Source of the DNA: an uncultured virus (IMG/VR IMGVR_UViG_3300028184_000121)
Lineage: Duplodnaviria > Heunggongvirae > Uroviricota > Caudoviricetes
Virus record (IMG/VR): IMGVR_UViG_3300028184_000121
Coordinates: 53,337-73,336 of that record
Strand: one strand, 5' to 3'
DNA length: 20,000 bases
Under the pieces are notes generated by a model. The model was not told where the DNA came from. It ran no database searches and saw only the letters and a list, made by a program, of their open reading frames with translations. Both the position numbers and the translations under genes were made by a program. This document shows, piece by piece, positions 5,373-18,293 of this stretch (the first letter of the stretch is position 1; each line of letters starts with the position of its first letter).

Positions 5373-5879
5373 TTAAACGATGTCAAATAACTTCGTAATG
5401 ATTTCTATCTCTTTATCCATTTTATATGGTTGACCCTCTGGTAAGTAGATTGCAACTTCTTTATGCATCTTATCAAAGTTAGGGTCTTTACTTGTAATCT
5501 CAATTACTGCTACTTCATCAACTGAGAAGTTTGGTAATTGTAATTTACTTTCAGCTTGACTATAGAAAGTAGCTTCCTTCTCAATCTTCTTACCTACTTC
5601 TACATTACCTACGATTACACGGCAATATTGTTTTACGTAAGTTGGTACTGTGTTACCTGCTTTAGATTTAGTAATATCTTTATCAAAACATTTTTCAGCA
5701 AATTTCTTTGAAGTTTCATATACGTTAATTCTGTATTGTTCCATCACATCCATATTACTCACTACAGCTTCAATCTGAGATTTAGTTAATGCACCTCGCG
5801 TACGCTTGATAATCGTTCCGATTAAAATCGCCTTTCGTTCCGCCATATTAAGTGTTTTATAATTTTTTAATTCCGACAT
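5373..5879 (-). CDS. Paralog-array member (LHIYIP family), 168 aa
   Basis: SD AGGAGG. Motifs LTKSQIEAV, INVYE, CRVIVGNVEVG, EVAIYLP. Confidence 0.8.
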   Translation of the reverse strand: MSELKNYKTLNMAERKAILIGTIIKRTRGALTKSQIEAVVSNMDVMEQYRINVYETSKKFAEKCFDKDITKSKAGNTVPTYVKQYCRVIVGNVEVGKKIEKEATFYSQAESKLQLPNFSVDEVAVIEITSKDPNFDKMHKEVAIYLPEGQPYKMDKEIEIITKLFDIV

Positions 5880-5901
5880 TGTTAAAATTCCTCCTAATTA
5901 G

Positions 5902-6426
5902 TTATGTTAAACAAACGTGTAATTCATAATGTAAACTTATTGGTTGTTCTTCTCTCGTTACTTCCCTAACGATCATAGTTGCAAATAAGTTACGTGTACC
6001 AAAATCTTCTATGTTTCCAATTTCAAATGTTTTACCCTCGACGATATTTACACCTTCGATGATTTCTGTATCATAATTATAACCATATCCATATGCTTGG
6101 AATGATGCTTTTGCTTTTGCTTTTGTTATTTTAATATCTCCGATTATCACTACAGGCATAGCCACATGACGGATTGTTACTTCTTTTCCATCCTCCATCA
6201 TTGTATATGTGAAGTCTCTTCCTGTACATGCATTTGATAGGAACTTGCGATATGCAGGACCTCTTTCTGCGGCATCAGCATAAATGTGTACTGCATCAAT
6301 ATGATGTGTTGTGAAAACACCTATGAATGCTGATCTATCTCCGTCTCCTAATTCTAATCTACTAATCCCAAAAGGTCTTGGTCCAAATATTGATAAGAAT
6401 GCTTCTTCATGTTTTAATGTAGTCAT
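5902..6426 (-). CDS. Paralog-array member, 174 aa
   Basis: SD AAGGGGG. Motifs VHIYAD, FLSNACT, VVIIGDI, ELHVCL. Confidence 0.8.
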   Translation of the reverse strand: MTTLKHEEAFLSIFGPRPFGISRLELGDGDRSAFIGVFTTHHIDAVHIYADAAERGPAYRKFLSNACTGRDFTYTMMEDGKEVTIRHVAMPVVIIGDIKITKAKAKASFQAYGYGYNYDTEIIEGVNIVEGKTFEIGNIEDFGTRNLFATMIVREVTREEQPISLHYELHVCLT

Positions 6427-6439
6427 TATTATTTCCCCC

Positions 6440-6994
6440 TTATTTTATCCCTCTGTAGTTGTAACACAATTCCATAACGGTATCTGGTATATAGACATGT
6501 AACCTGGACTTAATATCCGAATCAGTTACTTCTTCATTTTCCAGAGTCTGATAGGAATGTGTGACTCGAATGATTAAAATATTCTCATGGAGATTTTTAG
6601 GGTCATAGTCTTTTGACTCACCTCTGACATCGATATCAACATCCACACATCGACCACTATTGAATGGATCGAATATAACCGCCGCATTTACATGTGTGTC
6701 TGGAATCTTGATGTCTTTTGGAATGAGTAACCATTCCGGTGTTACCTTTTGCTTTATTTCTAATGTCCCACCATCAAGCTTGTATATGCCATCTCTTTTT
6801 GTGGTAGCGTGCATAGTGAATACAGGATACTCCTTGTATCCCATGTATACCGCTACATCATCTATAATATTACTGAACTGCAATTGATGCCGTAGAACTG
6901 CAATTACATTCTCAGCTGGTTGAAATCCTCTAATTCCCAAAATCACATTACTGTCTAATGATTGTAAAGCCACCTCTTTAGTTAGAATAGTCAT
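6440..6994 (-). CDS. Paralog-array member, 184 aa
   Basis: SD AAAGAGG. Motifs VAVYMG, FTMHAT, RLHVYIP. Confidence 0.8.
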   Translation of the reverse strand: MTILTKEVALQSLDSNVILGIRGFQPAENVIAVLRHQLQFSNIIDDVAVYMGYKEYPVFTMHATTKRDGIYKLDGGTLEIKQKVTPEWLLIPKDIKIPDTHVNAAVIFDPFNSGRCVDVDIDVRGESKDYDPKNLHENILIIRVTHSYQTLENEEVTDSDIKSRLHVYIPDTVMELCYNYRGIK

Positions 6995-7064
6995 TTTTAA
7001 TAACCTCTTTCTATTATATTATCGGATGGAGTTTTATCTCCATCCGGTGTTACCATTGATAAAC

Positions 7065-7565
7065 CTATATACGATTATTAGGAATATAAATGTGTAATTC
7101 TTTGAGGTCATGTTCTTGCCCATCGTCATTCGTTCCATAACGATTTACCTGAACAATTTGTAACTTGCTTTCATTTAAAGTTCCTTGTACATGAGGTCGT
7201 TCGACTTCTCCTATACGTGGATGCTCCATAAGACAATCATAGGCTACATCCGCAAACTCTAATGAACCGCATGTAGCTTCTCCGTATAATACATAATTTG
7301 CTGTAGCATACGTAATTTTAGTATCTGGTTCAGTCACTGATACATATTTTACTAACATACGAGTTAAAGCATTATCTATAAACTTTTGTGTTTTAGAATA
7401 CGCTTCATTTCGATCCGAGTATATATGAACTAAGTCAAATTTTTCTTTGTGTAATGTTGCGAGTAGAACGTGTAATTCATTATGCATTAACATAAAGTCT
7501 TTTAAACCTAATACGTTCGGTGAGAATAGTGAGTGTAATGTTTCATCATGTGATAGTGTTTTCAT
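7065..7565 (-). CDS. Paralog-array member (start revised to MKTLSH...)
   Basis: ATG 7565 with SD GAGGAGA. Motifs VHIYSD, FIDNAL, YVLYGE, ELHIYIPNNRI. Confidence 0.8.
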   Translation of the reverse strand: MKTLSHDETLHSLFSPNVLGLKDFMLMHNELHVLLATLHKEKFDLVHIYSDRNEAYSKTQKFIDNALTRMLVKYVSVTEPDTKITYATANYVLYGEATCGSLEFADVAYDCLMEHPRIGEVERPHVQGTLNESKLQIVQVNRYGTNDDGQEHDLKELHIYIPNNRI

Positions 7566-7611
7566 TGTAATATCTCTCCTCAAATAAATTAGTAGGATAA
7601 AGCTTTTAGCT

Positions 7612-8082
7612 TTATCCCTGTTCTGCTTGCAGAATGCGATTCTCTGGAATGTGTATATACATAATACTTCCATCGCCTCTATATTTCATTTTGTCAGCAT
7701 GTATAACTCCAACTAAATCTTCTGCTAGGGTCATAGTAAACTGATTAGAATCAACGAAGCATTCGCTTCGTTTTTCACTATTGGGTTGATACTTTGGATA
7801 GACTGAGTCTTCCACTTTTCCTACTGACACGTTACCTGATAAGACTTTAATACGACGCATTTCCATTCGGTCAGACGTTTGTTTAAAGTTACTGTCATAG
7901 CACGCTAGTTTCTTGAATGGCGATAACTCTCCATTCCCAAAGAAGAAGCGAACTCCTGTGATATCATCATTCTTCTTTAAGTGTGAAACTAATACTTTCT
8001 TTTCTGAATCTTTCATTAATCCGCCATGCGGGATCATAGATTCATTGTACTTCATAAGTTCTTCTCTTACGTATAATTCCAT
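7612..8082 (-). CDS. Paralog-array member, 156 aa
   Basis: SD AAGGAG. Motifs VRFFFG, FKKLAC, IKVLSGNVSVG, MYIHIPENRI. Confidence 0.8.
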   Translation of the reverse strand: MELYVREELMKYNESMIPHGGLMKDSEKKVLVSHLKKNDDITGVRFFFGNGELSPFKKLACYDSNFKQTSDRMEMRRIKVLSGNVSVGKVEDSVYPKYQPNSEKRSECFVDSNQFTMTLAEDLVGVIHADKMKYRGDGSIMYIHIPENRILQAEQG

Positions 8083-8097
8083 TTCTTAGCTCCTTAT

Positions 8098-8152
8098 CTC
8101 CATACCTTATAAGTATGGGGGAGGGTTGTTATGGACAACCCTAAAACCTTTA
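8098..8152 (-). repeat. Double-hairpin leader element, copy A
   Basis: AAGGTT-TT-AGGGTTG[TCCATAA]CAACCCT, then hairpin CCATAC..GTATGG, then the SD. Confidence 0.8.
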
Positions 8153-8164
8153 TTAATGGCTTAC

Positions 8165-8203
8165 TCACTAATATAATGTATGACTGAATACACATTTGTT
8201 ACG
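8165..8203 (-). promoter_or_regulatory. Bipartite early promoter CGTAACAA-N14-ATACATTATATTAGTGA
   Basis: Same two elements and spacing as at 11539-11577 and 14020-14058. Confidence 0.7.
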
Positions 8204-8207
8204 TTTT

Positions 8208-8747
8208 TTATTCTACTGGAATTGTAGGGTTAATATTAGGCTGATATACATGTAGTTCATTATACACTTCATCATGCTCTTTTCCTGTAGTTAACTCTTT
8301 TACGCAACGAGTAATTGTTCTAATAAAGATATGAGGCTTCTCAATATCAAAGTTCTCAAATTCTTTATCTGTATCAGCAATGAGAGTCTGACGTGTTTTA
8401 CCAAAAATAGTCTCTACTGTCTGGCGAATATGCTTATCACCAAATTCAATATCACTATCAATAGCCTTTACAAAGATACTTGACATCTCCATACACTCAT
8501 CATTTTTACCGTAATACTTTTCATTATATAATACGTCAGTGATAGACATTTCTTGAGAGTTAATATCATCTTTATGATGATATACAAAACGAAGAAACTT
8601 ATCAGATGATAAGTTCTTCAGTAATGTAGCTGTAATATTTCTATCCATTTCCGATATGATATTATTCTCTACCATGTGATCATATCGTGCTTGCATTGTT
8701 TTTATTAATTGACCAATATGTTCTAGTCCGTCTCCAAATATATGCAT
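8208..8747 (-). CDS. Paralog-array member (start revised to MHIFG...)
   Basis: ATG 8747 with SD GAGGAGA. Motifs IISEMDRNI, LRFVYH, ELHVYQP. Confidence 0.78.
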   Translation of the reverse strand: MHIFGDGLEHIGQLIKTMQARYDHMVENNIISEMDRNITATLLKNLSSDKFLRFVYHHKDDINSQEMSITDVLYNEKYYGKNDECMEMSSIFVKAIDSDIEFGDKHIRQTVETIFGKTRQTLIADTDKEFENFDIEKPHIFIRTITRCVKELTTGKEHDEVYNELHVYQPNINPTIPVE

Positions 8748-8748
8748 A

Positions 8749-9354
8749 CTAGTTCTCCTCACTTTCTGTAAATTCTTCAAATAAGGTACCTGGCATTAGA
8801 ATATGTAATGAGTATTCAGGTTTCGTACTTGTAGCAGAGCGTTCTGCAAATATACGATGAGATTCATAATCTTTTACTAGTGCAATAATAATCTCTTTTT
8901 TACCCGGGAACTTAGTAAGTTTTTCGGATGTAGTTGTCATGATTTCCAATTGTCCAGTATGTGTCATTTTCTGTGACGTATGGATACATTTATTACCTTT
9001 AAGAATAGCGTCAGCACCCTTAACGATATCCACTCGTCGAGTGGTAGTTTTATTACCAATAATTTCAGAGATATTTGGAACTTCTCCCACAGGGTATTGC
9101 ATATTCGTAGGAACTGTTTCATCCATATCAATACACTTAAATGCGAAGTCTAAGAAGTCCTTCGAGAATAATGAGCAATCCCCACCATCGTATAAGTGTA
9201 CTAATTTAAGTCCATATGTATCATCTTGTAGTAATGTTTTAATTGCATCTGTATGATCTTGTGAGAAGTGTAATGATGAATTCTTAGGAAGGAATTTATC
9301 CAGCCCGTCCTTCTCGATATGTTGTAATGTAAGTTCTTTTGATAGTGTAATCAT
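8749..9354 (-). CDS. Paralog-array member, 201 aa
   Basis: TAATG overlap with the upstream gene. Motifs VHLYDG, FLDFAF, VDIVKG, SLHILMP. Confidence 0.78.
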   Translation of the reverse strand: MITLSKELTLQHIEKDGLDKFLPKNSSLHFSQDHTDAIKTLLQDDTYGLKLVHLYDGGDCSLFSKDFLDFAFKCIDMDETVPTNMQYPVGEVPNISEIIGNKTTTRRVDIVKGADAILKGNKCIHTSQKMTHTGQLEIMTTTSEKLTKFPGKKEIIIALVKDYESHRIFAERSATSTKPEYSLHILMPGTLFEEFTESEEN

Positions 9355-9929
9355 TATTTATTCTCTCCCTTTTCTGTAGTTGGTACATATACCATAATAT
9401 GTCGGTAAACACCCATAACGTCAGCAGGTTTATACCATTGCATTTCATTATTTGGGCGTGTAGCTATTTCTACTTCTACTTCGCATATAATAACATTATT
9501 TATAAACATTGGAATTGCTACACCATCTTCATCACAAGCGGTACATGATTCCATAATTTCAGTTTGCATAACACCATTACGATTCATATATGCAAAGTTT
9601 TTAATTTTTCTTGTTTTAGGTTGATAAGTTCCAAATAATACTGTAACTTTATGAGTATCAAATGAATCGAATGGTTTTACACCAATTCGAGATATGTGCT
9701 TGTTTGTAGCCTCATCGATAAATGTAAACATATCATTCTGACCTTCGAAGATTGCAATACTATCGATAACCTTTTCACCTTGTGCGAGTCTATCTAAGAT
9801 AATATCATGATGCTCATGTAGTAATGAGCCATCTCTACATAATTTTGTAATTTTATTAAGTCCTTTATCTATATTCTCTAAGCGAATATTTTCATATACT
9901 TTCTCAGCCTTATGTAAGTCTGTCGTCAT
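9354..9929 (-). CDS. Paralog-array member, 191 aa
   Basis: SD GAGGAGG. Motifs IAIFEG, FIDEAT, VTVLFG, HIMVYVP. Confidence 0.8.
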   Translation of the reverse strand: MTTDLHKAEKVYENIRLENIDKGLNKITKLCRDGSLLHEHHDIILDRLAQGEKVIDSIAIFEGQNDMFTFIDEATNKHISRIGVKPFDSFDTHKVTVLFGTYQPKTRKIKNFAYMNRNGVMQTEIMESCTACDEDGVAIPMFINNVIICEVEVEIATRPNNEMQWYKPADVMGVYRHIMVYVPTTEKGENK

Positions 9930-9952
9930 TTCTATTTCCTCCTCTAAGGTTT

Positions 9953-9967
9953 CTCAATATAATGTAG
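9953..9967 (-). promoter_or_regulatory. Putative early promoter CTACATTATATTGAG
   Basis: Variant of the recurrent motif, between the endolysin terminator and the next RBS. Confidence 0.55.
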
Positions 9968-9987
9968 GATGATTTCTAAAAAATGAC

Positions 9988-10017
9988 AAAAAAGAAGAGT
10001 AGACCGAAGTCTACTCT
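9988..10017 (-). terminator. Intrinsic terminator of the endolysin gene (cUUCGg tetraloop)
   Basis: AGAGTAGAC-TTCG-GTCTACTCT followed by TCTTTTTT. Confidence 0.9.
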
Positions 10018-10022
10018 CTTTC

Positions 10023-11069
10023 TTAGTATTTATCACGAACTGTGATATATGCACCATGAACCCATTCGTCATCATTGATGCAGTACCAATCACCTTGACG
10101 TGTCCAAACGCGTACTTGTGCACCGCTTGTAAGTTGTTTCTTAATAGAGAAGTTTGTTCCTGGACCTGTACGTACATTTAATACAGATGCTGTTACTACA
10201 GCTCCACCAGAAATAAAGTCTCCACCTACGTCAGAACGAACCCATCCAGAACCTAAGTTCCACCAAATGTAACCGTCTTCACCTTTGACATAACCGTAGT
10301 ATAAATACTCAAGTTTATCAAGTGTTTTAACGATTCTTGAATTTGTAGATGGCTGTTCACGTAAACGTACACCAGTGCCAGTTACTTTTACACGACCAAT
10401 TGGAAGACCTGCGTTTTTATCAACAAGACTACCACTGTCAGGTGCAATGCTTGGAGGTGGTGTTGGAACACTCGCTCCAGTATACCATTCAAGTGTTTTA
10501 TCACCTAATAGCATATTTACATCAGAACGTGTTTGGATACCTGGAATGTTACCGTACTCAGTATATTGCCAAATATCTACACGCATTTTTGGTTTAGGAC
10601 CATCTGGGTTAGGAGATTTGTTAGCTCCGTAACGTGGTACCCAAACGAAGTCAGCATCCACTTTATCCATACGGAATTCATCCCATACGTGATGACCAGT
10701 GTATAAGCCAACTTTCCATCCTGCTTTACGTAACTCATCAACGTAAGCTTGTGTAGCAGGAAGCATTAAATCAGGGCGTCCTTTGATTGTCAATTCTTCT
10801 ACATCGACAACTAAGAACTTCGCATCTTTATCCGCACGTTTCATGAAGTCACGTGCTTCCACACGAGCATCTTCGACGCTTACGAATAAAGCATATGCAT
10901 AGTGACCGAAAGGAATACCGTATTGTTTACAGCCTTCAACGAAAGACTTATACTTTCTATCAACCGTGTTAGAACCGTATTGGACACGAATGATTGCTAA
11001 GTCTAAGTATTTACTAGCTAAAGACCAATCTACAGTATTATGATGGGAAATATCAACGATGAAACCCAT
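10023..11069 (-). CDS. Endolysin: GH25 muramidase (PlyB-like) plus two SH3b-type cell-wall-binding domains
   Basis: IVDISHHN, IIRVQYGS, IPFGHYAY, catalytic VVDVEE, VGLYTGHH, WVPRYG, DIWQYT. Pro-rich linker, then VRLREQPSTNS...GWV and LNVRTGPGTNFSI...EWV. SD AAGGAG. Confidence 0.95.
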   Translation of the reverse strand: MGFIVDISHHNTVDWSLASKYLDLAIIRVQYGSNTVDRKYKSFVEGCKQYGIPFGHYAYALFVSVEDARVEARDFMKRADKDAKFLVVDVEELTIKGRPDLMLPATQAYVDELRKAGWKVGLYTGHHVWDEFRMDKVDADFVWVPRYGANKSPNPDGPKPKMRVDIWQYTEYGNIPGIQTRSDVNMLLGDKTLEWYTGASVPTPPPSIAPDSGSLVDKNAGLPIGRVKVTGTGVRLREQPSTNSRIVKTLDKLEYLYYGYVKGEDGYIWWNLGSGWVRSDVGGDFISGGAVVTASVLNVRTGPGTNFSIKKQLTSGAQVRVWTRQGDWYCINDDEWVHGAYITVRDKY

Positions 11070-11097
11070 ATATATCCACTCCTTTTAAGTAAGATAT

Positions 11098-11127
11098 GAG
11101 ACAAGTTTGTTGTCTCAATATATTGTT
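11098..11127 (-). promoter_or_regulatory. AR9-type late promoter AACA-N6-TG with a 5'-terminal mRNA hairpin
   Basis: Minus strand reads AACA(11127-11124)-ATATAT-TG, matching the AR9 nvRNAP consensus AACA-6N-T(A/G) as I recall it. The predicted +1 G at 11116 starts hairpin GAGACAA-CAAAC-TTGTCTC. Confidence 0.65.
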
Positions 11128-11163
11128 AAGAGTGAAGATGGGTGGGGAGTTCATAATGGAGAC

Positions 11164-11198
11164 AAAAAAAAGGAATAACCTAGAATTAGGCTACTCCT
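11164..11198 (-). terminator. Intrinsic terminator
   Basis: AGGAGTAGCCTA/TAGGTTATTCCT (G-U pairs form only on the minus strand) plus U-tract. Confidence 0.85.
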
Positions 11199-11497
11199 AA
11201 TCCACTCTTCATGATACGCATCTGCGGTATGAATATGTGGATTGTCCTATCTTTAAATACTTTGGTGATATCTAATGGATGGACGACATGTACTTCAACG
11301 GCGGCTTTAAAGGCTGCACCATCTTTGAAACCAGTATAGAAGATAACGTTCTCAACATCGTCAGTTAAAGTAACTTCGTCAAATAATTCTTCTACTTCAA
11401 ATTTAGTTAAGATACCAGTTCTAATGATTGTACCGTTAACATAAGCTTCGTTCTCCTGCATAAATCTTGAAAATTCTGAGTCAGTAAATTTTTTCAT
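11186..11497 (-). CDS. Short paralog-array member, 103 aa
   Basis: SD AAGGGG. Motifs GILTKFEVEEL, VIFYTG, AAFKAA, TIHIFIPQMRI. Has its own promoter and terminator. Confidence 0.8.
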   Translation of the reverse strand: MKKFTDSEFSRFMQENEAYVNGTIIRTGILTKFEVEELFDEVTLTDDVENVIFYTGFKDGAAFKAAVEVHVVHPLDITKVFKDRTIHIFIPQMRIMKSGLGVA

Positions 11498-11538
11498 AAT
11501 AATAAATCCCCTTTATAATTAGTATAGTTTTGATGTAT

Positions 11539-11577
11539 TCACTAATATAATATGTAACTGAAAAGGGGGTTATTACG
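11539..11577 (-). promoter_or_regulatory. Bipartite early promoter CGTAATAA-N14-ACATATTATATTAGTGA
   Basis: Recurrent motif pair with identical spacing. Confidence 0.7.
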
Positions 11578-11615
11578 GAACATAGATTTACGGTCAGGAG
11601 CATAGTAAAACAGAC

Positions 11616-11648
11616 AAAAAAATAAAAGGTAGGAATGAACCTACCTTT
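11616..11648 (-). terminator. Intrinsic terminator
   Basis: Stem AAAGGTAGG/CCTACCTTT plus U-tract. Confidence 0.85.
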
Positions 11649-11655
11649 CATTATA

Positions 11656-12156
11656 TTACTCAGATAAACGACTCTGAGGAATATATACTCGCAATGCTCT
11701 GAAACTCGGGATAGAATGAGGAGTGACAATGCCTCCAAAACCACGTGTCGCTCCACGACCGACATGGGAGCATACCGTAGCAGTAAGATGATCTGCATTA
11801 AATGCTGGTAATTGATTGGTCGATAATGGTTTACGATTGTATTCGACATATCTTCCAACTTCCACATCGTTTAATACAGGTTCAATTTTAACTGTATCAG
11901 TTCGACTTGTAGTCTTATGTTCTCGAACAATTTCTTTCTCAGTACATCCTTGTAAACGGAATGCTTCGTTATGACGTCCTCCGAAATACACTTCAACAAT
12001 ATCGATTTCTTTGTCTTTAAATACATCTAATAAAACATCAAACTCGTTAGAAGTGATATAGCCTAAGGTAAAGAAGTGATTCACATACTCTTCACCCATT
12101 TCTTGAATATCGATAGGTTGTACTGTTAGTACTTTTTCTGTAGTTAATTTAATCAT
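11656..12156 (-). CDS. Paralog-array member, 166 aa
   Basis: SD GAGGAG. Motifs YITSNEFDVL, VEVYFGG, FRLQGCT, DVEVG, LRVYIPQSRL. Close paralog of 12238-12759. Confidence 0.85.
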   Translation of the reverse strand: MIKLTTEKVLTVQPIDIQEMGEEYVNHFFTLGYITSNEFDVLLDVFKDKEIDIVEVYFGGRHNEAFRLQGCTEKEIVREHKTTSRTDTVKIEPVLNDVEVGRYVEYNRKPLSTNQLPAFNADHLTATVCSHVGRGATRGFGGIVTPHSIPSFRALRVYIPQSRLSE

Positions 12157-12161
12157 TGCCG

Positions 12162-12226
12162 TCTCCTCTTAGCTATCCAATTTTTCATTAGATAGTGAGG
12201 GCTGTTATGGACAGCCCTCGAACCTT
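12162..12226 (-). repeat. Double-hairpin leader element, copy B
   Basis: AAGGTTC-GAGGGCTG[TCCATAA]CAGCCCTC-A-CTATCTAAT[GAAAA]ATTGGATAG-CTAAGAGGAGA. 60/65 nt identical to copy C. Confidence 0.85.
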
Positions 12227-12237
12227 ATTATATAATA

Positions 12238-12759
12238 TTACTTTACTTCATGACCTGGACGTACACGTTCTTGTGGAATGTATACACGCAATACAATTTC
12301 ATGTGAATGTGAAGCTCTATTACGAGGTCCAACTTCAAATCGACGAACTGTTTTACGACTTGTATGATGACAAACTGTAGCATTGATATTGTCAAAGTTA
12401 ATCATTGGTCGTGAATGCACAACAGTGTTACGATTTACTTCAACATAGTTTCCTAAACTAACTGCACCAAATTCTGCAACTGGGAAGATATTCACTACAC
12501 GAGATTCTTCTTCACCAGGTTTCTTCATGCGAATTTCTTTTTGTGTGCAACCGTTAAATAGGAACTCTTCAACATGTCGTGCACCAAAGTATACTTCAAC
12601 TTTGTTAATAGTATGTGCACGATATACATTCATTAAAGCTTCTAATTCATTAGATGTAACGTAATCTAAAGTAAAGAAGTGATTTACCCACTCATTACCT
12701 TTTTCTAAAATCTCTTTTTCTGTTACTTCTAATACGTCTGCTGTAGTCATTTCGATCAT
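12238..12759 (-). CDS. Paralog-array member, 173 aa
   Basis: SD GAGGAG. Motifs YVTSNELEAL, VEVYFGA, FLFNGCT, GAVSLG, LRVYIPQERV. Confidence 0.85.
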   Translation of the reverse strand: MIEMTTADVLEVTEKEILEKGNEWVNHFFTLDYVTSNELEALMNVYRAHTINKVEVYFGARHVEEFLFNGCTQKEIRMKKPGEEESRVVNIFPVAEFGAVSLGNYVEVNRNTVVHSRPMINFDNINATVCHHTSRKTVRRFEVGPRNRASHSHEIVLRVYIPQERVRPGHEVK

Positions 12760-12764
12760 TGTTT

Positions 12765-12829
12765 TCTCCTCTTAGCTATCTAATTTTTCATTAGATAGTA
12801 AGGGTTGTTATGGACAACCCTCAAACCTT
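12765..12829 (-). repeat. Double-hairpin leader element, copy C
   Basis: AAGGTTT-GAGGGTTG[TCCATAA]CAACCCTT-A-CTATCTAAT[GAAAA]ATTAGATAG-CTAAGAGGAGA. Confidence 0.85.
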
Positions 12830-12841
12830 TATATGTTTTTA

Positions 12842-13351
12842 TTATTTATTTTCTTGTAAACGTTCTTGCGGAATATAGATATTTAATGTTGTTACAGGTA
12901 ATGCAATTGCAGCACGTTGCTGTCCAAACGTTTCATGTAATCGTTCGATAGTAATTGTTGCTGTTACATCTGTAGCTTTGAATCCAGCTTGAACCATATT
13001 GGAATTCTCTAAGTTAGCGCCAGTACGGTCAATAGATTCAGTCCCTTTAGTCACAGTACCAAATTGAACAGTTACTTCAACTGTTTTATTTCGTTTTGCA
13101 AATGTTTGATGTGTAGTATGGAATTTAGCTGTGCATGCATCATAAGCAAAGAACTCACCTTGCACTGTTCCAAAGTACACTCGTACATGTGTAAATTTAT
13201 TTTGTGGATTAGTGTAAATACCATGTAGCATATTTGCTTCAGTTTTATTTAATAATCCTTGATTTAAAAATGCTTGTTTATACTCTTCCCCTGAAGTTTG
13301 TACCACTTCATCGGTTACTCTTAAAATTGAATTCGTATCGATTTTTAACAT
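12842..13351 (-). CDS. Paralog-array member (start revised to MLKID...)
   Basis: ATG 13351 with SD GAGGAGG. Motifs GLLNKTEANML, VRVYFGT, FAYDACT, FGTVTKG, LNIYIPQERL. Confidence 0.85.
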   Translation of the reverse strand: MLKIDTNSILRVTDEVVQTSGEEYKQAFLNQGLLNKTEANMLHGIYTNPQNKFTHVRVYFGTVQGEFFAYDACTAKFHTTHQTFAKRNKTVEVTVQFGTVTKGTESIDRTGANLENSNMVQAGFKATDVTATITIERLHETFGQQRAAIALPVTTLNIYIPQERLQENK

Positions 13352-13364
13352 AAGTTTCTCCTCC

Positions 13365-13416
13365 TCATACAATCTTTAATTGTATGAATGATATTTGTCT
13401 GGTATATCGGACCATA
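13365..13416 (-). repeat. Double-hairpin leader element, diverged copy E
   Basis: ATGGTCC-GATAT[ACCAGACAA]ATATC-AT-TCATACAAT[TAAAG]ATTGTATGA-GGAGGAG. Same architecture, different stem sequences. Confidence 0.55.
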
Positions 13417-13477
13417 GTTTTTATATCTATATTGTAAGCTAGGAGGGAGGGTATGGGGACCCTTCTCCTAGGTGTTA

Positions 13478-13942
13478 CTAACCTAAATACACATGAAGTG
13501 ATTTAATAACAACAATTTTTGTAACTCTCTGATCCTTTCGAATCTTATGGTTGTATGTTACAGTTGCTGCAAATTGATTTTGTTTGCAACGACCTGATAC
13601 CTGGGATAATAATCCTACACTAAAAGGATCATCGTAGTCATCATTTGCACCGATAATAATATCCGATGTCAATACTTTTACTCGTTGAATCCATACATAT
13701 CCCATATCTTGACGATAAACTGTCGTACATGCACCGCCACAGAAACGGTTGTAATCGTCAATATATTTATCGTATACATGTAATTCTGAAATGTCACCTT
13801 TCGCTAACTCGACTTTAAGAACTTCAAAGTTCTTTTTAGAAAGCTTTCCTGCGGAAATGTGTTCTTTTAACAATACCATCATTTCAGAAGTGAGTTCTTC
13901 CGATGGCTTGTTTTGAGAAGGTGATACTTTAATCGATTTCAT
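13478..13942 (-). CDS. Paralog-array member (start revised to MKSIK...)
   Basis: ATG 13942 with SD AAGGGGA. Motifs KLSKKNFEVL, LHVYD, FCGGACT, VKVLTSDIIIG, SLHVYLG. Confidence 0.8.
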   Translation of the reverse strand: MKSIKVSPSQNKPSEELTSEMMVLLKEHISAGKLSKKNFEVLKVELAKGDISELHVYDKYIDDYNRFCGGACTTVYRQDMGYVWIQRVKVLTSDIIIGANDDYDDPFSVGLLSQVSGRCKQNQFAATVTYNHKIRKDQRVTKIVVIKSLHVYLG

Positions 13943-13956
13943 AGTTCCCCTTTTCT

Positions 13957-14007
13957 TACTCAAGTTTTAATTGAGTAGGTAATGTTTCATGGATAACATT
14001 CAACCTT
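13957..14007 (-). repeat. Double-hairpin leader element, copy D
   Basis: AAGGTTG-AATGTT[ATCCATGA]AACATT-ACC-TACTCAA[TTAAAAC]TTGAGTA-AGAAAAGGGGA. Confidence 0.75.
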
Positions 14008-14019
14008 TTTTTATGGTGC

Positions 14020-14058
14020 TCACTATTATAATATATAGTCAATTATATCTTTATTACG
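14020..14058 (-). promoter_or_regulatory. Bipartite early promoter CGTAATAA-N14-ATATATTATAATAGTGA
   Basis: Recurrent motif pair with identical spacing, immediately downstream of a terminator. Confidence 0.7.
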
Positions 14059-14095
14059 AAAAAAAAGAAAAGTAGAATCCTTAACGGATTCTACT
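14059..14095 (-). terminator. Intrinsic terminator overlapping a stop codon
   Basis: Stem AGTAGAATCC/GGATTCTACT plus TTTCTTTTTTTT. Confidence 0.88.
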
Positions 14096-14620
14096 CTCTG
14101 GAATGTAAATATGAAGATACACTTTACTATCTTCTTTATAGTGATAAGACGGATGTTCTTTGACTGTCTTATCCATTTCATATGTTTCTATTACATGTAA
14201 CTTGTTTACATCGAATACAGATTTGCAATTATCTGAAGTGGACGTGTCACGCATTTGTCCAGTCTGAGTACGATGAGTTGTTTGTTTTCGTTTAAAACCA
14301 ACTGACATGTCGGTCAGTACTGGTCGTACTACTTTTGCAGACGTTACCGTTTTTTTCACTTCAGGTACGTCCTTATATACGAATTGATTTTCATTATATG
14401 TAGCACTATGTTCGAAACGATAAATATCAGCGTTTCCAATATAAAAAATAACAGTCGCTTCATTTAATTCTTCACATGAAGCACCGTTAACGATGGTAGA
14501 TAATTCTTCTGATGTTAGTATTTCTAATTTTGGATTATGTAACGCCTTCTTAATTTCTTTTATATTATTTGTTAAGATGCGTTGTAGTACATATCGTTTC
14601 ATCTCTATTGTTTCAGTCAT
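14081..14620 (-). CDS. Paralog-array member, 179 aa
   Basis: SD GAGGGAG. Motifs ILTSEELSTI, VIFYIG, FEHSAT, VLTDMSVG, LHIYIPESRI. Confidence 0.85.
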   Translation of the reverse strand: MTETIEMKRYVLQRILTNNIKEIKKALHNPKLEILTSEELSTIVNGASCEELNEATVIFYIGNADIYRFEHSATYNENQFVYKDVPEVKKTVTSAKVVRPVLTDMSVGFKRKQTTHRTQTGQMRDTSTSDNCKSVFDVNKLHVIETYEMDKTVKEHPSYHYKEDSKVYLHIYIPESRIR

Positions 14621-14682
14621 GAATATCTCCCTCTCCGGTTTCTCTCTATTATATGGATGTACAGATATTCATAAATGATTAC

Positions 14683-14710
14683 AAAAAAAGAATAGGGATT
14701 CCCTATTCTT
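14683..14710 (-). terminator. Intrinsic terminator overlapping a stop codon
   Basis: Stem AAGAATAGGG/CCCTATTCTT plus U-tract. Confidence 0.85.
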
Positions 14711-15218
14711 CTCCAATCACATACGCTTGAGGAACATAGATACTTAGTACAGTACCTAGGTCATCCGTATGTGTTCTATCTCCATCTTCCGTTTTATTTA
14801 CTTTATTATTCTTAATAACTGTAACCAATTGGTCAGCCATTTCACATGATACATATTTATGATAGTTCTCTGTATCGATGCCACCTGATAGCTTCTTAAT
14901 AATCGTAGATGTTTCTCGGTGTACCCCTGTTGTAATAAGACCGATCAATACATTACAAGTTGTGCTATGTGTTGCTATTTTGATATTCTCACCTTCATGA
15001 ATAGTAGACATCATTGTTTTTGTATAGCAAGCTGTATTCTTAAAATCATCTAAATCCTTTTCTCCAAAGTAAAATGTAATTTCTTTAATCGTTTTATCTT
15101 TCTCTAACTCTTGCGTTGCTACTGAATCAATTGTTGCTAAAGCTGTAGGCTCAACCAACTCCTGCATTCCTCCAAAGAACAATTCCTTCATTTTCTCCGT
15201 TACAAAGAATCCTTTCAT
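14703..15218 (-). CDS. Paralog-array member (probable start MKGFF..., ATGA overlap)
   Basis: Motifs ITFYFGE, FKNTAC, CNVLIGLITTG, LSIYVPQ. Confidence 0.8.
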   Translation of the reverse strand: MKGFFVTEKMKELFFGGMQELVEPTALATIDSVATQELEKDKTIKEITFYFGEKDLDDFKNTACYTKTMMSTIHEGENIKIATHSTTCNVLIGLITTGVHRETSTIIKKLSGGIDTENYHKYVSCEMADQLVTVIKNNKVNKTEDGDRTHTDDLGTVLSIYVPQAYVIGEE

Positions 15219-15856
15219 CTTAGCCATCCCTCTTCCGTTAATTTTTTTACATTTATATCTGTTAGTTTATAATCGCCTTTAAATACATTATGATCAACGT
15301 TACCGAATCTAGTTTCCCCGTCTTGGATTTCCATTACATCCATGCCATCATTCGTAAGAGTCTGTAAAGAGAATGTACAATACGGATATGATTTAGAAAT
15401 CTCTTCTAGCTTCTTTCTTGTACTTTCTAATTTATCATAATCTTTATCAATATAAATACTATATTGATGCATGTTATCATTAAAGATAATACGCTCACCT
15501 TCCAATACTCGTATGCCAGCTCGCAATTGACCTGCTATCAATATTGGGTCAAATTTATTATATTTGTCATATTGTTTAGAGTCTTCCTTTTTCAATGCTT
15601 CTATGATATCATCAGCTCTCGCCATGACCATATCGATATCATATGATTCAAACTGTTCATAATGGTCCATTACATACTGTGCCATGATTGATAGTTTATC
15701 CCAAATGTATTTAGAGTTAATACTATCCACAATTCTATTATGGAATTGAACCAATAATGTATTATCTAAAGAGAGCGAATGTATATCCGCTCTCAATCCT
15801 TTATCTTCTTCTACGATGCCTTCTATTAATATTCTAAGTTCAACTATCTTCTTCAT
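15215..15856 (-). CDS. Hypothetical protein, apparently not a member of the array family
   Basis: About 213 aa ORF with ATGA overlaps at both ends. Lacks the C-terminal motif. Confidence 0.75.
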   Translation of the reverse strand: MKKIVELRILIEGIVEEDKGLRADIHSLSLDNTLLVQFHNRIVDSINSKYIWDKLSIMAQYVMDHYEQFESYDIDMVMARADDIIEALKKEDSKQYDKYNKFDPILIAGQLRAGIRVLEGERIIFNDNMHQYSIYIDKDYDKLESTRKKLEEISKSYPYCTFSLQTLTNDGMDVMEIQDGETRFGNVDHNVFKGDYKLTDINVKKLTEEGWLR

Positions 15857-16497
15857 TCCCATTCACCATCCAGTGTTAATTCTGATGCCATCACGTTCGG
15901 AACATAGATGTGAACAAAGTTTGCAGTAAATTCTTTATCCTTCACACCATCAGGCTCCATGATAGAAGAAGAATGACGATAGTGAGACAATGTTACCATA
16001 AAGAATGTATTATCCCATACTGGTGATACATAATGGAATGAATCTGGGATAAGATTACGAGTCGGTCCATTTGCAAAATGCTCCTCAACATTTACTGCCA
16101 TCATCATACCTAGTTTCGGCTTAGGTAGATGGCTAGGCACATCACCATCATCTATAATAACTGTTTTTAACATTTCATAATCAGTGTCAGCGATATCCAT
16201 CCCAGGTCTTCTACTAGATAGGTGAATATCATCCATACCATAAGTCTCAAAATCATTATGCTCATCTGTACCATAATATAGGTAGAATCCATCAATGGTT
16301 TTTCCTAATGATTGGATTTGAGCATGAATTTTACCCGCCAACATATCATACTTTCCTTCAAAGAAGTATGTGCGTTTACGCGGTAATACTTGAAGCAATG
16401 CGTTTTTAATCGTAAAGACCGTTAGGTCAGTACGCTTCGGTTTGTTCATTCTTTCACACTTTCGATACGGTTTGAAGATTGTGTCTAAACTTGTCAT
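15853..16497 (-). CDS. Diverged paralog-array member, 214 aa
   Basis: SD GGAGG. Motifs FYLYYGTDEHNDF, TVIIDDGDV, FVHIYVP. Confidence 0.75.
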   Translation of the reverse strand: MTSLDTIFKPYRKCERMNKPKRTDLTVFTIKNALLQVLPRKRTYFFEGKYDMLAGKIHAQIQSLGKTIDGFYLYYGTDEHNDFETYGMDDIHLSSRRPGMDIADTDYEMLKTVIIDDGDVPSHLPKPKLGMMMAVNVEEHFANGPTRNLIPDSFHYVSPVWDNTFFMVTLSHYRHSSSIMEPDGVKDKEFTANFVHIYVPNVMASELTLDGEWE

Positions 16498-16551
16498 TTT
16501 ATAATTCCTCCAAGTAAATTATTGATAAAGCTTTTTACTTTATCTTGTATT

Positions 16552-16589
16552 CATATAAATAATGTATGTTTTAGAATACCGTTATTCCG
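16552..16589 (-). promoter_or_regulatory. Bipartite early promoter variant CGGAATAA-N14-ATACATTATT
   Basis: One mismatch in each element with the same 14-nt spacing. The upstream element overlaps the stop codon at 16582. Confidence 0.55.
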
Positions 16590-17058
16590 TTTCTGGTCCA
16601 GGGATATAAATATGGAAAGCTATACTTGTCATAACCTTTGGTATATTACGCTTTCCACTCTTACGTATCTCTGTAAAGGTAGACTTTGTAACGATTGGCT
16701 TACTATAATCTCCGTAACATATTTCCTCCATCTCATCTCGACTACATGCACGGATACCAATACCAAACGTTCCTAGAAGAACATGAATGCGCTTCATGTC
16801 GCATATATACTCGTTGTCATGCTTTACAACTTCTTTGTAAGCATACCCTGACATCTCTTCGAATGTAGGAATACCATGCTTTCCAATATGTATACCAACA
16901 TGAACACATTTTGTCCAGTTGTCATCTAAAGCATTGATAATCTTATTAATCTTCTTTTTAGACAATCCTAGATTACCTAATTCTAAATAATGATATAATG
17001 GCTCGATACCCGCTGGGGTATCGAACACTTCGTATGGTATAAACTGACTTACTCGCAT
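16582..17058 (-). CDS. Paralog-array member, 158 aa
   Basis: SD AAGGGGAG. Motifs LSKKKINKI, VGIHIG, IHVLLGTFGIG, FHIYIP. Confidence 0.8.
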   Translation of the reverse strand: MRVSQFIPYEVFDTPAGIEPLYHYLELGNLGLSKKKINKIINALDDNWTKCVHVGIHIGKHGIPTFEEMSGYAYKEVVKHDNEYICDMKRIHVLLGTFGIGIRACSRDEMEEICYGDYSKPIVTKSTFTEIRKSGKRNIPKVMTSIAFHIYIPGPETE

Positions 17059-17074
17059 AATAAAACTCTCCCTT

Positions 17075-17617
17075 TCACTTCATTTTAGGTGGTACGTATA
17101 TGTATAAGAAATACATCGGACGTCGATGCTCAACCGGTTTCAATTTTCCGACAGGATATGGAAGACTAAACTCTATTGTATTAACATTTGAAAATGCTCG
17201 TGTAATAAATGCAATAGGACCTCTATCATTCTCTGGAATATTCCCATTATAGAAACAATCTACACTACCACCATAAATACACCAAGTATCCACTCTATCC
17301 GATAAATTTGTTGAACGTGGACCTGGAATACCCGATTCTAACATGAACTTTCTATCCATTAATATCGGTACAATATTAATACTATTACTAATTGTCAATG
17401 GATATAAACGCTCAGCAATATAGTGCGCGTCATACATTGGTAAAAATGCTTCACATCTTCCATGTAATGTATATGCCCATTGATTTATAATAGCTGTGGT
17501 CTGTTCCGATCTACGGGAAGTTATATCTGGTAGATAATGCATTAGAGGTAAGAATGCCTCTTTCTGAAATTTGTTAAATTGTTGAATGTGATCATCGTAT
17601 ACGAACATATGACTCAA
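17075..17617 (-). CDS. Diverged paralog-array member (TTG 17617 or ATG 17608 start)
   Basis: Motifs WCIYGG and LYIYVP. Shares an N-terminal Q[KR]EAF...[AW]AY.LH segment with 17614-18240. Confidence 0.7.
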   Translation of the reverse strand: MSHMFVYDDHIQQFNKFQKEAFLPLMHYLPDITSRRSEQTTAIINQWAYTLHGRCEAFLPMYDAHYIAERLYPLTISNSINIVPILMDRKFMLESGIPGPRSTNLSDRVDTWCIYGGSVDCFYNGNIPENDRGPIAFITRAFSNVNTIEFSLPYPVGKLKPVEHRRPMYFLYIYVPPKMK

Positions 17618-18240
17618 ATCCCTTCCCCTTGGAATAGCTCATATCTATCTCTACATCCTTCAAAGATATGTATTGTGTACTCATGACGGAGACAGTTACG
17701 TCTCGGCTGATAAGCCATATGGTCATACATAAGATATTCTTTCCTGCTGTCCACATAATAATTCTCCTTCTCTCTCTCATATATTAATTCATTTATCTCT
17801 ATTTTTTCTAATACCACAATTAGTTTAGGCTCTTTATCAGGCATTTCCTGACAAGAGGAATTGTAAAAGTGTTGTGTAGGTAATCCTTTTAAAACTATGT
17901 TTTCAGTTCTCTTTTCTAACCCAGTTCTATTATTCATAACACTACTAGGTTGACAAGCTTTTAAAAATTCATATTTATTATCAGTATATATTTCAAATCC
18001 CCAATCATGTATTGGTATTTCTAATTGTATATTAAACCAAACCTCTGCAACTTCACATGCTGCTTCCCAGCTTAGTCTACCCTTACTATGGTTATGTAGA
18101 TAATATGCTAAAGAAGTAACATTGCTTGCACGTGTTTTACCTGTAGTAAACATGCTAGGTTTGTGATACCAGCAGAGGTGTAATAACTGATCAAAAGCTT
18201 CTCGTTGAGAATAGTTTAATGTATTTGGGTCTAATTTCAT
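17614..18240 (-). CDS. Diverged paralog-array member (start revised to MKLDP...)
   Basis: ATG 18240 with SD AAGGGAG. Motifs FEIYTD, FLKAC, IVLKG, TIHIFEG. Confidence 0.7.
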   Translation of the reverse strand: MKLDPNTLNYSQREAFDQLLHLCWYHKPSMFTTGKTRASNVTSLAYYLHNHSKGRLSWEAACEVAEVWFNIQLEIPIHDWGFEIYTDNKYEFLKACQPSSVMNNRTGLEKRTENIVLKGLPTQHFYNSSCQEMPDKEPKLIVVLEKIEINELIYEREKENYYVDSRKEYLMYDHMAYQPRRNCLRHEYTIHIFEGCRDRYELFQGEGI

Positions 18241-18261
18241 AGCCAACTCTCCCTTTGACTT

Positions 18262-18293
18262 AATAAAAGACAATAAGGGAATATCCCTTATTG
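18262..18293 (-). terminator. Probable intrinsic terminator
   Basis: Stem CAATAAGGGA/TCCCTTATTG followed by TCTTTTATT. Confidence 0.65.

Follow-up and report, generated by a model that had tools for sequence, protein, structure and literature searches.

A window of 20,000 nt from an uncultured AR9/PBS1-like giant (jumbo) phage, with Bacillus as its probable host, contains a repeated two-hairpin element in front of the genes of one paralogous array. Judged from the sequence, this element is a genuine cis-acting RNA structure on the mRNA strand. We consider it, at a probability of roughly 0.4, to be a portable per-gene leader acting post-transcriptionally, which would block 5'-3' decay and present an open Shine-Dalgarno (SD) sequence, yielding protected, ribosome-loaded messages. 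The distance between hairpin 2 and the SD and the apparent exchange of leader halves between paralogs are new here. The endolysin matches are to Bacillus phages in 111 of 119 records. In AR9 only two small genes lie between UvsX and the polymerase gene, whereas in the present phage the array occupies this place. The leader was not found in AR9 or in the five other jumbo-phage records searched, and in the AR9 record the leader model nowhere exceeds 18.1 bits.

Copies of the element and their genomic context

The five copies listed in a preliminary description were seen directly in the sequence at their places on the minus (mRNA) strand (Table 1), with the stem variants quoted there (GGGUUG/CAACCC etc.), and all four genes of the 13942->11656 operon are indeed preceded by one (c1 to c4). 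Five is the number for the window, but not for the whole genome, which holds seven (c1 to c7): two extra copies are located outside the window (G000:577 and 1218). Together with two allelic variants in related contigs (c1alt, c3alt) this makes nine variants. A structural descriptor gave seven matches in G001, a near-identical record of 223 kb, and none in each of 30 dinucleotide shuffles; it was drawn up from these same copies, hence the observed count is not independent and it is the shuffles that argue against chance.

From 5' to 3' the element, about 50 nt in size, reads GGU, about three pyrimidine-rich nt, stem 1 (5–10 bp), 0–3 nt and stem 2 (7–11 bp), followed by the SD; an A-rich unpaired run of 13–25 nt lies in front of it. 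The conservation of GGU was confirmed. Of the loop CCA, which had been described as conserved too, only the CC is invariant, located in the 5' half of the stem 1 loop in every copy. Because one copy reads CCG, the invariant letters are GGU, CC and the last loop A (six positions).

Table 1. Coordinates of promoters, leader copies, genes and further hairpins in the window
Feature	Position	Strand	Score	Details
Early (virion RNA polymerase) promoter, c1	14021..14035	-	PWM 26.8	TATATTAT-N6-G(+1); inferred start 14021, 16 nt before GG of c1
Copy c1	13957..14005	-	CM 67.1 bits	First G of GGU 14005; GGU; stem of 6 bp, CC in its loop; ACC; stem of 7 bp; SD core GGGG at 13950-13947 after a further 6 nt; start codon 13942
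Array gene behind c1	13478..13942	-		154 aa
Separate hairpin after c1 gene	13439..13471	-	z -2.4 and -3.2	No U-tract; 25 nt before c2
Copy c2	13364..13413	-	CM 52 bits	First G of GGU 13413; short class: UGGU, 5-bp stem, ACCA loop; no promoter
Array gene behind c2	12842..13351	-		169 aa
Copy c3	12776..12827	-	CM 88.7 bits	First G of GGU 12827; long class; 6 nt to SD GGAG (12769-12766); no promoter
Array gene behind c3	12238..12759	-		173 aa, P0001
Copy c4	12173..12224	-	CM 85.8 bits	First G of GGU 12224; long class; 6 nt to SD GGAG (12166-12163); no promoter by PWM
Array gene behind c4	11656..12156	-		166 aa
Intrinsic terminator	11621..11652	-		End of c1-c4 operon
Early promoter, c5	8166..8180	-	PWM 27.2	TACATTAT-N6-G(+1); inferred start 8166, 18 nt before GG of c5
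Copy c5	8100..8148	-	CM 68.7 bits	First G of GGU 8148; long class; 6 nt to SD GGAG (8093-8090)
Array gene behind c5	7612..8082	-		156 aa

The early promoter consensus of AR9 is AAATATATATTAT-(6N)-G (PMC5312081). AR9-type sites, TATATTAT-(6N)-G, are located ahead of c1 and c5 in the window and of c6 and c7 in G001, and the start signal TA(C/T)ATTAT-N6-G of AR9/PBS1 (PMC5312081) precedes c1alt as well. In these five of the nine variants the element begins 16–18 nt after the inferred transcription start. The internal copies c2, c3 and c4 have no promoter (PWM below 0 versus a training minimum of 23.5). Since three of the seven genomic copies are promoterless, the unit to which the element belongs is the cistron, not the promoter. 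Only 4 of 32 early-promoter-like sites bear the element. That the copies are not terminators, as had been stated, is borne out: none combines a GC-rich stem with a U-tract or scores as such on the mRNA strand, whereas the operon's own terminators do, and hairpin 2 of c1 scores on the antisense strand only. The separate hairpin ahead of c2 is retained in the L034 allele and may protect the 3' end of the upstream cistron once the message has been processed.

The element is restricted to one paralog group, whose seven genes have no known function; the six closest family members by HMM all carry it, although this HMM was built from relatives of the c2-c4 genes and is hence biased. For P0001 no Pfam or PHROG family was found, and its confident structure model corresponds to no known fold (best Z 4.0). 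The array proteins have mixed charge and a pI of 5.1–9.2. c3 and c5 share 96% identity in their first modules, compared with 63% in their second hairpins and 17% in their proteins; for c6 and c7 the figures are 86%, as against 22% for the proteins. In L034 the promoter of c1 is followed by a different gene allele and a different leader variant (c1alt), and the c4 leader-plus-gene unit is missing from L033 and L034. On these comparisons, leader halves appear to have been exchanged between paralogs. Four RNA runs, available as contigs only, gave flat depth and neither joints or circles at the elements nor end clusters.

Fold of the leader and its distance to the SD

That the stems change while pairing is kept had been stated in the preliminary description, and both stems were found to covary in two analyses. 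Double changes occur in 15 of 21 pairs, and none of 500 shuffles reached the observed score (nine variants; the shuffle ignores kinship). When the pairing was slid as a control, the paired fraction dropped from 82% to 38–42%, and the second covariation analysis gave a similar result. Furthermore, there are 14 G·U pairs on the mRNA strand, ten of them inside stems, where the other strand would have A·C. Covariation and G·U pairs on this strand thus identify an RNA element. Folding z-scores range from -0.66 (c1) to -5.43 (c3), with -4.2 for c4; c1, c1alt and c5 are individually weak by this measure. In the MFE fold of c1 the 5' GGU pairs alternatively with the ACC 3' of stem 1. Because the copies share ancestry and exchange sequence, the nine variants correspond to about three independent classes.

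The end of hairpin 2 is exactly 6 nt from the SD core in eight of nine variants, while the linker letters and the spacing from SD to start codon vary; among other pre-SD hairpins in G001 none of 24 has this distance. The exception is c2, in which stem 2 abuts the SD and the SD is mostly paired (predicted 0.13 unpaired). In the MFE folds long pairings mostly spare the SD core. The 16S rRNA of B. subtilis has the tail CCUCCUUUCU (PMC5732282). On this basis the anti-SD helix would reach 5 nt beyond GGAG on its 5' side, with the stem ending 1 nt further out.

Two possible partners had been suggested for the loop CC, namely the 5' GG, giving a pseudoknot, and the SD. The first is plausible as a candidate helix, with about even chances, and fits the classical geometry. 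Its two G-C pairs, however, do not vary and are thus without compensatory change in nine of nine variants in a manual parse. The flanking pairs are U-A in two variants and non-standard in seven, and in c3alt and c6 the flank is altered without a pair being gained. In the alignments the helix is 60–61% paired, MAFFT having displaced c1 by one column. The sole supporting change is UGGU/ACCA, giving 4 bp, and it stems from two related short-stem variants. As for pairing with the SD, for c3 and c4, both with long stems, the duplex of loop UCC with SD GGA (-3.4 kcal/mol) is indeed stronger than that with the 5' GG (-1.4 kcal/mol), but in c2 the order is reversed (loop-SD -1.8, 5' duplex -3.4), and c1alt shares the same ACC loop. 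The proposed switch is weak: it comprises just 2–3 bp, and in the short-stem variants it is lost.

Relation to known RNA classes

The RNA had been noted as unrecognised, and no Rfam family matched it. A search of the window with Rfam 15 at E<=5 gave three weak matches, none on any copy; in the whole of G001 only a group I intron passed the gathering threshold, and in scans of small regions the best overlaps were freshwater-2 (22.8 bits, 49.9 needed) and RAGATH-34 (18.3 bits, 60.7 needed). Known self-cleaving ribozymes were rejected, there being no Rfam match and no catalytic core of these classes recognised by eye. The rpsF (S6:S18) leader resembles the element in its conserved cytosine pair and two helices beside the SD; there, the CC forms a bulge that separates H1 from H2, and the SD is masked by H1 (PMC3895269). 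Identity with it was rejected as well, since the present element has its CC in a terminal loop, the SD lies outside both stems, the genes are phage orphans and Rfam gives no match.

The kinds nearest to the element are the PeSLs of T4-type phages and the 5' stabilisers of Bacillus. A PeSL (promoter-early stem-loop) cassette is likewise a repeated non-coding module of stem-loop and SD before orphan genes in a variable region, with signs of inter-copy exchange and of gain or loss of leader plus gene (Arbiol et al. 2010, PMC2839356). The combination of promoter, stem-loop and SD is found at c1, c5, c6 and c7, but not at c2, c3 and c4. In PeSLs the stems lie across or ahead of a sigma70 promoter and work as terminators (PMC2839356), whereas the present stems occur in twos, lie within the transcribed leader next to invariant loop and 5' letters and, by sequence, lack the U-tract of a terminator or attenuator. 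Mosaic leaders and allele swaps are present, and no joints appear in the four contig sets. A pair of neighbouring stems close behind early promoters is also known from putL and putR of phage HK022; put RNA, however, measures about 70 nt, has bulged stems and binds the zinc domain of host RNA polymerase (PMC9378689), while the present element of smaller size is tied to the SD and found ahead of internal genes too.

[quoted passage not shown] These need a hairpin at the terminus, a strong SD or ribosome stalling; the present element differs by a conserved two-stem fold set back from the transcript start, sevenfold repetition and a possible tertiary contact. Bacterial RNase J1 is halted in vitro by a flaviviral xrRNA, and flaviviral PK1, where two base pairs join 5' bases to the fold, is reminiscent of the GG/CC helix (PMC5760640, PMC8374639). 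But xrRNAs build a ring of 15–16 nt around the 5' end, closed by pseudoknots, whereas here neither a ring nor a three-way junction is evident, only a 2–4-bp candidate helix with invariant core pairs. Literature searches listed no phage element of the xrRNA type among their matches, and in the main text of a 2021 xrRNA review (among PMC5760640, PMC8374639) the word 'phage' is absent.

Possible function of the leader

In the stabilising leader that we favour, the 5' GG would pair back to the loop CC, and the resulting small H-type pseudoknot would cap stem 1, beneath which stem 2 would stack. The SD would be single-stranded and the fold just outside the SD/anti-SD helix, such that the 30S subunit could load directly against it. 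Fold and bound ribosome together may then stand in the way of RNase J1, the 5'-3' exonuclease of the host. Attack would come from the dephosphorylated primary 5' end at c1, c5, c6 and c7, and from an endonuclease cut in the A-rich linker ahead of the internal genes at c2, c3 and c4. The outcome would be long-lived, well-translated messages for a subset of early genes, and the repeats may double as homologous sites at which paralogs exchange leader halves and leader-plus-gene units. The hairpin without U-tract ahead of c2 fits a putative processing site flanked by two protecting structures, for which B. subtilis gapA offers an analogy. AR9 early transcripts are poorly enriched by TEX, for which possible dephosphorylation was suggested (PMC5312081). 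A bolder version, in which a compact pseudoknot with its U-rich 5' strand in major-groove triples with stem 1 would halt RNase J1 unaided, appears unlikely; it would make the element a phage xrRNA counterpart at the edge of the ribosome footprint, trimming a polycistronic early transcript into stable, translation-ready single-gene messages as host mRNA falls.

Several points speak against a stabiliser. The element is confined to one paralog group, as expected for a regulon operator or plain co-duplication, and to few of the early-promoter-like sites; a generic stabiliser needs no invariant loop letters; the structure lies inside the transcript instead of at its 5' end; the GG/CC helix is weak as a duplex in the long class and no xrRNA-type ring is evident; and c2 departs in spacing and SD accessibility.

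The main rival, though doubtful, is a translational operator: a phage or host protein would bind GGU, CC or the pseudoknot beside the SD, sterically block or trap the 30S subunit and co-regulate the seven paralogs, e.g. for late shut-off. T4 gp32 with its pseudoknot operator, the gp43 operator and ribosomal-protein leaders are models for this. Invariant unpaired letters within a variable scaffold, the constant SD distance and the single gene family would all be explained, and for steric repression, being close to the start site can be enough (PMC3895269). However, no candidate binder emerged: for 150 of the 172 small proteins that G001 encodes outside the window, no RNA-binding Pfam family was returned. 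The array proteins offer neither a known fold nor a uniform charge; a stem 1 of varying length moreover shifts GGU relative to CC, unless the two pair directly. Unlikely, too, is that the element is mainly a PeSL-like recombination cassette, spread by duplication and gene conversion, with hairpins as generic insulators and GGU and CC invariant through descent alone. The discordant leader and protein identities, the changed or missing units in L033 and L034 and the shuffling driven by PeSLs in T4-type phages (PMC2839356) agree with it, but the compensatory and G·U changes imply selection on the RNA fold, three copies are promoterless and none is a terminator, unlike in PeSLs, and the four contig sets contain no joints or circles.

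We regard as quite unlikely a switch or riboswitch in which the loop CC has two alternative partners, the 5' GG in the on state and the SD in the off state, and in which a ligand, temperature or 5'-end trimming decides between them. The loop-SD energies of c3 and c4 favour it, the constant 6-nt linker could be a strand reaching back to the loop, and small H-type aptamers such as preQ1-I hide just a few SD bases. Against it stand, besides c2 and c1alt, the mostly free SD core and the lack of an Rfam riboswitch match, the geometry of the loop: the CC is on the wrong side for a downstream partner and, at loop positions 2–3, leaves 0–1 nt for the loop that such a partner needs. An anti-SD expression platform was looked for and none found, and the loop could form at most 3 bp with the SD (2 bp in the short class), which does not match the SD sequestration by a pseudoknot helix in translational riboswitches of the preQ1-I, preQ1-II and SAM-II type. 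A put-like nascent-RNA antiterminator or antipause element binding the phage virion RNA polymerase is very unlikely: the two stems, shortly after the start in five of nine variants, recall HK022 putL (PMC9378689), but spacing is locked to the SD, copies recur ahead of every internal gene, the c1-c4 operon closes with an ordinary terminator, and size and bulges differ. Extremely improbable is a small self-cleaving ribozyme cutting the polycistron into single-gene messages. One copy per gene and a compact fold with few invariant bases would suit it; yet no Rfam ribozyme matched at any threshold tried, the invariant positions are merely six, the inter-stem junction comprises 0–3 variable nt, and comparison by eye with the consensus cores of pistol, twister, HDV and hammerhead revealed none of these motifs.

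The nine variants with their ready-made compensatory changes are a small natural series, which makes the question directly testable in B. subtilis. Should the leader stabilise, it would provide a 50-nt stabiliser usable for Bacillus expression, and if it blocked RNase J1 unaided, xrRNA-type resistance would be extended to phages. An operator would define a regulon and point to an unknown regulator; a mere cassette would be a jumbo-phage parallel to PeSL shuffling. The element touches the question by what means jumbo phages like AR9 maintain the output of selected early messages as host mRNA declines.

Copies and secondary structure of the leader element

The preliminary description had placed five copies of a two-hairpin leader ahead of the Shine-Dalgarno (SD) sequence of array genes, and all five are present as described: c1 to c4 in one operon, with c1 first, and c5 separately at about 8.1 kb. 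Two extra copies (c6 and c7) lie at positions 577 and 1218 of the 73 kb virus record G000, of which the window is part, each ahead of an array-family gene, and the related contigs L033 and L034 contribute the allelic variants c3alt and c1alt, respectively. A descriptor composed of GGU, a stem with a CC loop, a second stem, SD and start codon found 7 matches in G001 vs none in each of 30 shuffles. G001, examined as 12 stretches, is a near-identical record of 223 kb which is 90% complete and encodes a polymerase subunit identical to that of G000. With a covariance model built from nine variants the seven genomic copies score 52–89 bits; since they match the model by construction, the informative part is the gap to the next match at 16.7 bits.

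Read from 5' to 3', the anatomy shows an A-rich unpaired run of 13–25 nt, followed by the invariant G-G-U and about three pyrimidine-rich bases. Stem 1 has 5–10 bp and a loop with an invariant CC in its 5' half and an invariant last A; after a gap of 0–3 nt comes stem 2 (7–11 bp, A-rich loop), then a linker and the SD. Copies of the long-stem class have AGGU and the loop UCCR; c2 and c1alt, both short-stem variants, have UGGU and the loop ACCA. The claim that the stems change while pairing is kept holds: in the nine-sequence alignment, whose variants form roughly three sequence classes, double changes affect 15 of the 21 pairs. None of 500 shuffles of this alignment, which ignore relatedness, reached any of five covariation measures. 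When the partners were slid against each other, the paired fraction fell from 82% to 38–42%, and a second analysis was similar. Independently of the covariation test, 14 G·U pairs occur in the stems, 10 at internal positions, and these can form on the mRNA strand only. The element is an RNA structure on the mRNA strand. As had been proposed, no copy scores as a terminator, and no copy matches an Rfam family.

In 8 of the 9 variants exactly 6 nt separate the end of stem 2 from the SD core, with varying linker letters; the distance from SD to start varies from 4 to 8 nt. A survey of pre-SD hairpins at 195 genes of G001 yielded 31 hairpins, 7 of which are the element; among the other 24, all at most 16 nt from the SD, none stands at 6 nt. 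Because the 16S tail of B. subtilis ends CCUCCUUUCU (PMC5732282), stem 2 would end one base past the reach of the anti-SD. Shared descent could also cause the constant spacing. A separate hairpin lies 3' of the c1 gene (window 13439–13471); it lacks a U-tract, has a buried AGGAG and a C-rich loop, is also present in the L034 allele and loosely resembles a decayed copy of the element.

Genomic setting and transcription

Among the genes of the window is one for a split RNA polymerase beta subunit with 39–40% identity to the non-virion enzyme of the Bacillus phages AR9 and PBS1; others encode a UvsX-like recombinase and an endolysin of the GH25-SH3 type. Since 111 of the 119 phage records matching the endolysin are Bacillus phages, Bacillus is the likely host. 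AR9 has two small genes at the place where this phage carries the orphan-gene array (Table). Many array proteins share the motif (I/V)Y(I/V)P at the C-terminus. Searches for a protein function gave no Pfam or PHROG family, no viral Foldseek match at E<=0.001, no Atlas match and no VIA structural match at Z>=5; a weak likeness to ssRNA-phage coat sheets (Z about 3) was disregarded. An AlphaFold model of an array protein is confident (pLDDT 87) and had no fold match, the best Z being 4.0.

Table. Location of the array, its operon and further family members
Feature	Position	Strand	Remark
Orphan-gene array, ~25 divergent genes, 150–215 aa	window 5373–18273	minus	inserted between UvsX and polymerase gene
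Operon holding c2, c3 and c4 internally	window 14021 to terminator 11652–11621	minus	
Further array-family members	L027:7595–8726 and L025:8187–8696 (stretches)		

Early promoters of the AR9 type, TA(C/T)ATTAT-N6-G (PMC5312081), are in use in this phage. A weight matrix gave 32 early-promoter sites scoring at least 12 in G001. Four of them precede the element, with the GG 16–18 nt downstream of the inferred start; the leaders at the remaining sites are mostly short and unstructured. The same matrix detects no early-promoter site for c2, c3 or c4. Since these three copies are promoterless and lie inside the operon, the element would act per cistron and post-transcriptionally.

Other leaders and promoters were seen as well. 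A 168-nt multi-hairpin leader follows an early promoter ahead of an array-family gene (L025:8019–8187, G001 108019–108187); its last hairpin is like stem 2 and its 3' part folds at z -3.6. A lone hairpin of similar kind precedes the SD at G001 56079. A structured leader of 190 nt (about -48 kcal/mol) follows an early-promoter-like site at G001 185335 (minus strand, stretch L029) and has no Rfam match at the gathering threshold. A group I intron (98 bits) adjoins an HNH/NUMOD4 endonuclease gene at L030:15016–15208 of G001. By eye, late promoters of the AR9 type, AACA-N6-TA, can be made out at G000 8879–9806 and at other late genes, ahead of the endolysin and of several genes that are likely structural. 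As a DNA-level reading of the element this promoter was rejected; it fits, again by eye, only c6. A near-perfect sigma-A-type promoter, antisense and with 11 of 12 matches (window 12208–12236, plus strand), overlaps c4, is directed into the c3 gene and is absent at the other copies. A reading of the loop as the -35 of such a promoter was rejected; it fits only c4, and 39 sites vs 47 in shuffles represent no excess.

Among the runs containing window 9000–15000, 21 of 24 are soil metatranscriptomes, and some of these runs contain phage contigs of >100 kb with even depth. Four RNA runs were examined as contigs, whose depth is flat and from which neither ends nor expression can be read; they gave no joints. 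In one, X23, the contig ends at 14002, adjoining c1, a single case that we do not count as evidence. The presence of the phage in these runs may stem from phage DNA sequenced along with the RNA. The DNA of AR9-like phages contains uracil, a possible route into such libraries.

Possible function and alternative readings

In the best-supported reading, to which we assign a probability of about 0.42, the leader would stabilise the mRNA and load ribosomes; we infer every functional step of it. In Bacilli, downstream mRNA is protected by a 5' hairpin, by a ribosome-binding site or by protein binding (PMC3997798), AR9 early transcripts are possibly dephosphorylated (PMC5312081), and folded RNA is able to stop RNase J1 (PMC5760640). 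That the element itself would form such a block to RNase J1 free of protein is unlikely. A protein-bound translational operator accounts for the invariant letters and for the restriction to one gene family as well as the stabilising leader does, but a search found no candidate binder, and we consider it possible, if rather doubtful. Exchange between copies bears on a further reading, in which the leader is a shuffled cassette only. Between c3 and c5 identity reaches 96% in the first module, against 63% in the second hairpin and 17% in the protein; the c4 unit is absent from L033 and L034, and L034 has a different leader and gene allele downstream of the c1 promoter. There, L034:1–700 is an inverted second c1 locus with the same promoter, another leader and a gene of 34% identity; the contig has the look of a head-to-head assembly of two strains, and the inversion is either real or strain variation that the assembler has joined. 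Such swaps resemble the PeSL shuffling of T4-type phages, where, however, the stems are described as promoter-linked terminators, unlike the element (PMC2839356). A cassette without further role is decidedly unlikely.

A pseudoknot between the 5' GG and the loop CC had also been suggested. The proposed letters are indeed invariant, G and C in a genome of 35% GC although the adjoining stems vary, and the helix grows to 4 bp in the short class, where stem 1 is weakest. The CC also stands where we would expect the partner of an upstream strand in an H-type fold, which we take to need about 3 nt crossing stem 1 and 3–5 nt crossing the short helix. Against it, the core GG/CC pairs never vary, flank changes in c3alt and c6 add no pair, the 4-bp form is probably a single event, and the long-class duplex, at only -1.4 kcal/mol, is weaker than pairing of the loop with the SD (-3.4). 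We regard the case for the pseudoknot as evenly balanced. A switch acting through the pairing of loop and SD is quite improbable. A put-like antiterminator (compare PMC9378689) is very improbable and a ribozyme extremely so. Mimicry of a T-loop or tRNA elbow was rejected, as it fits only c6, and so were CsrA sites, which would sit on the wrong strand.

Range of the element

In AR9, vB_BpuM-BpSp, LPJP1, vB_StaM_SA1 and the records G005, G006 and G002, a set that takes in two more distant IMG/VR jumbo records, the covariance model found nothing above 22.3 bits. Eight of 20 borderline matches were inspected, and all eight are without the motif. Pattern scans of viral and genome contigs returned this phage or chance alone among the matches listed. 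Over the 137 loci taken from the matches listed, the best match of the covariance model, L008, reached 30.7 bits; it was rejected as a distant copy, being itself pattern-selected and reading as coding on the opposite strand. Searches of the openly accessible literature on phage pseudoknot stabilisers, phage xrRNA and jumbo-phage operators found no description of the element. Divergent family members exist in other phages as proteins (P0010–P0015). Among the records searched at the DNA level, the known range of the element thus seems to be one lineage. The motif appears to be undescribed; as a kind, repeated structured leaders of early phage genes are already known.
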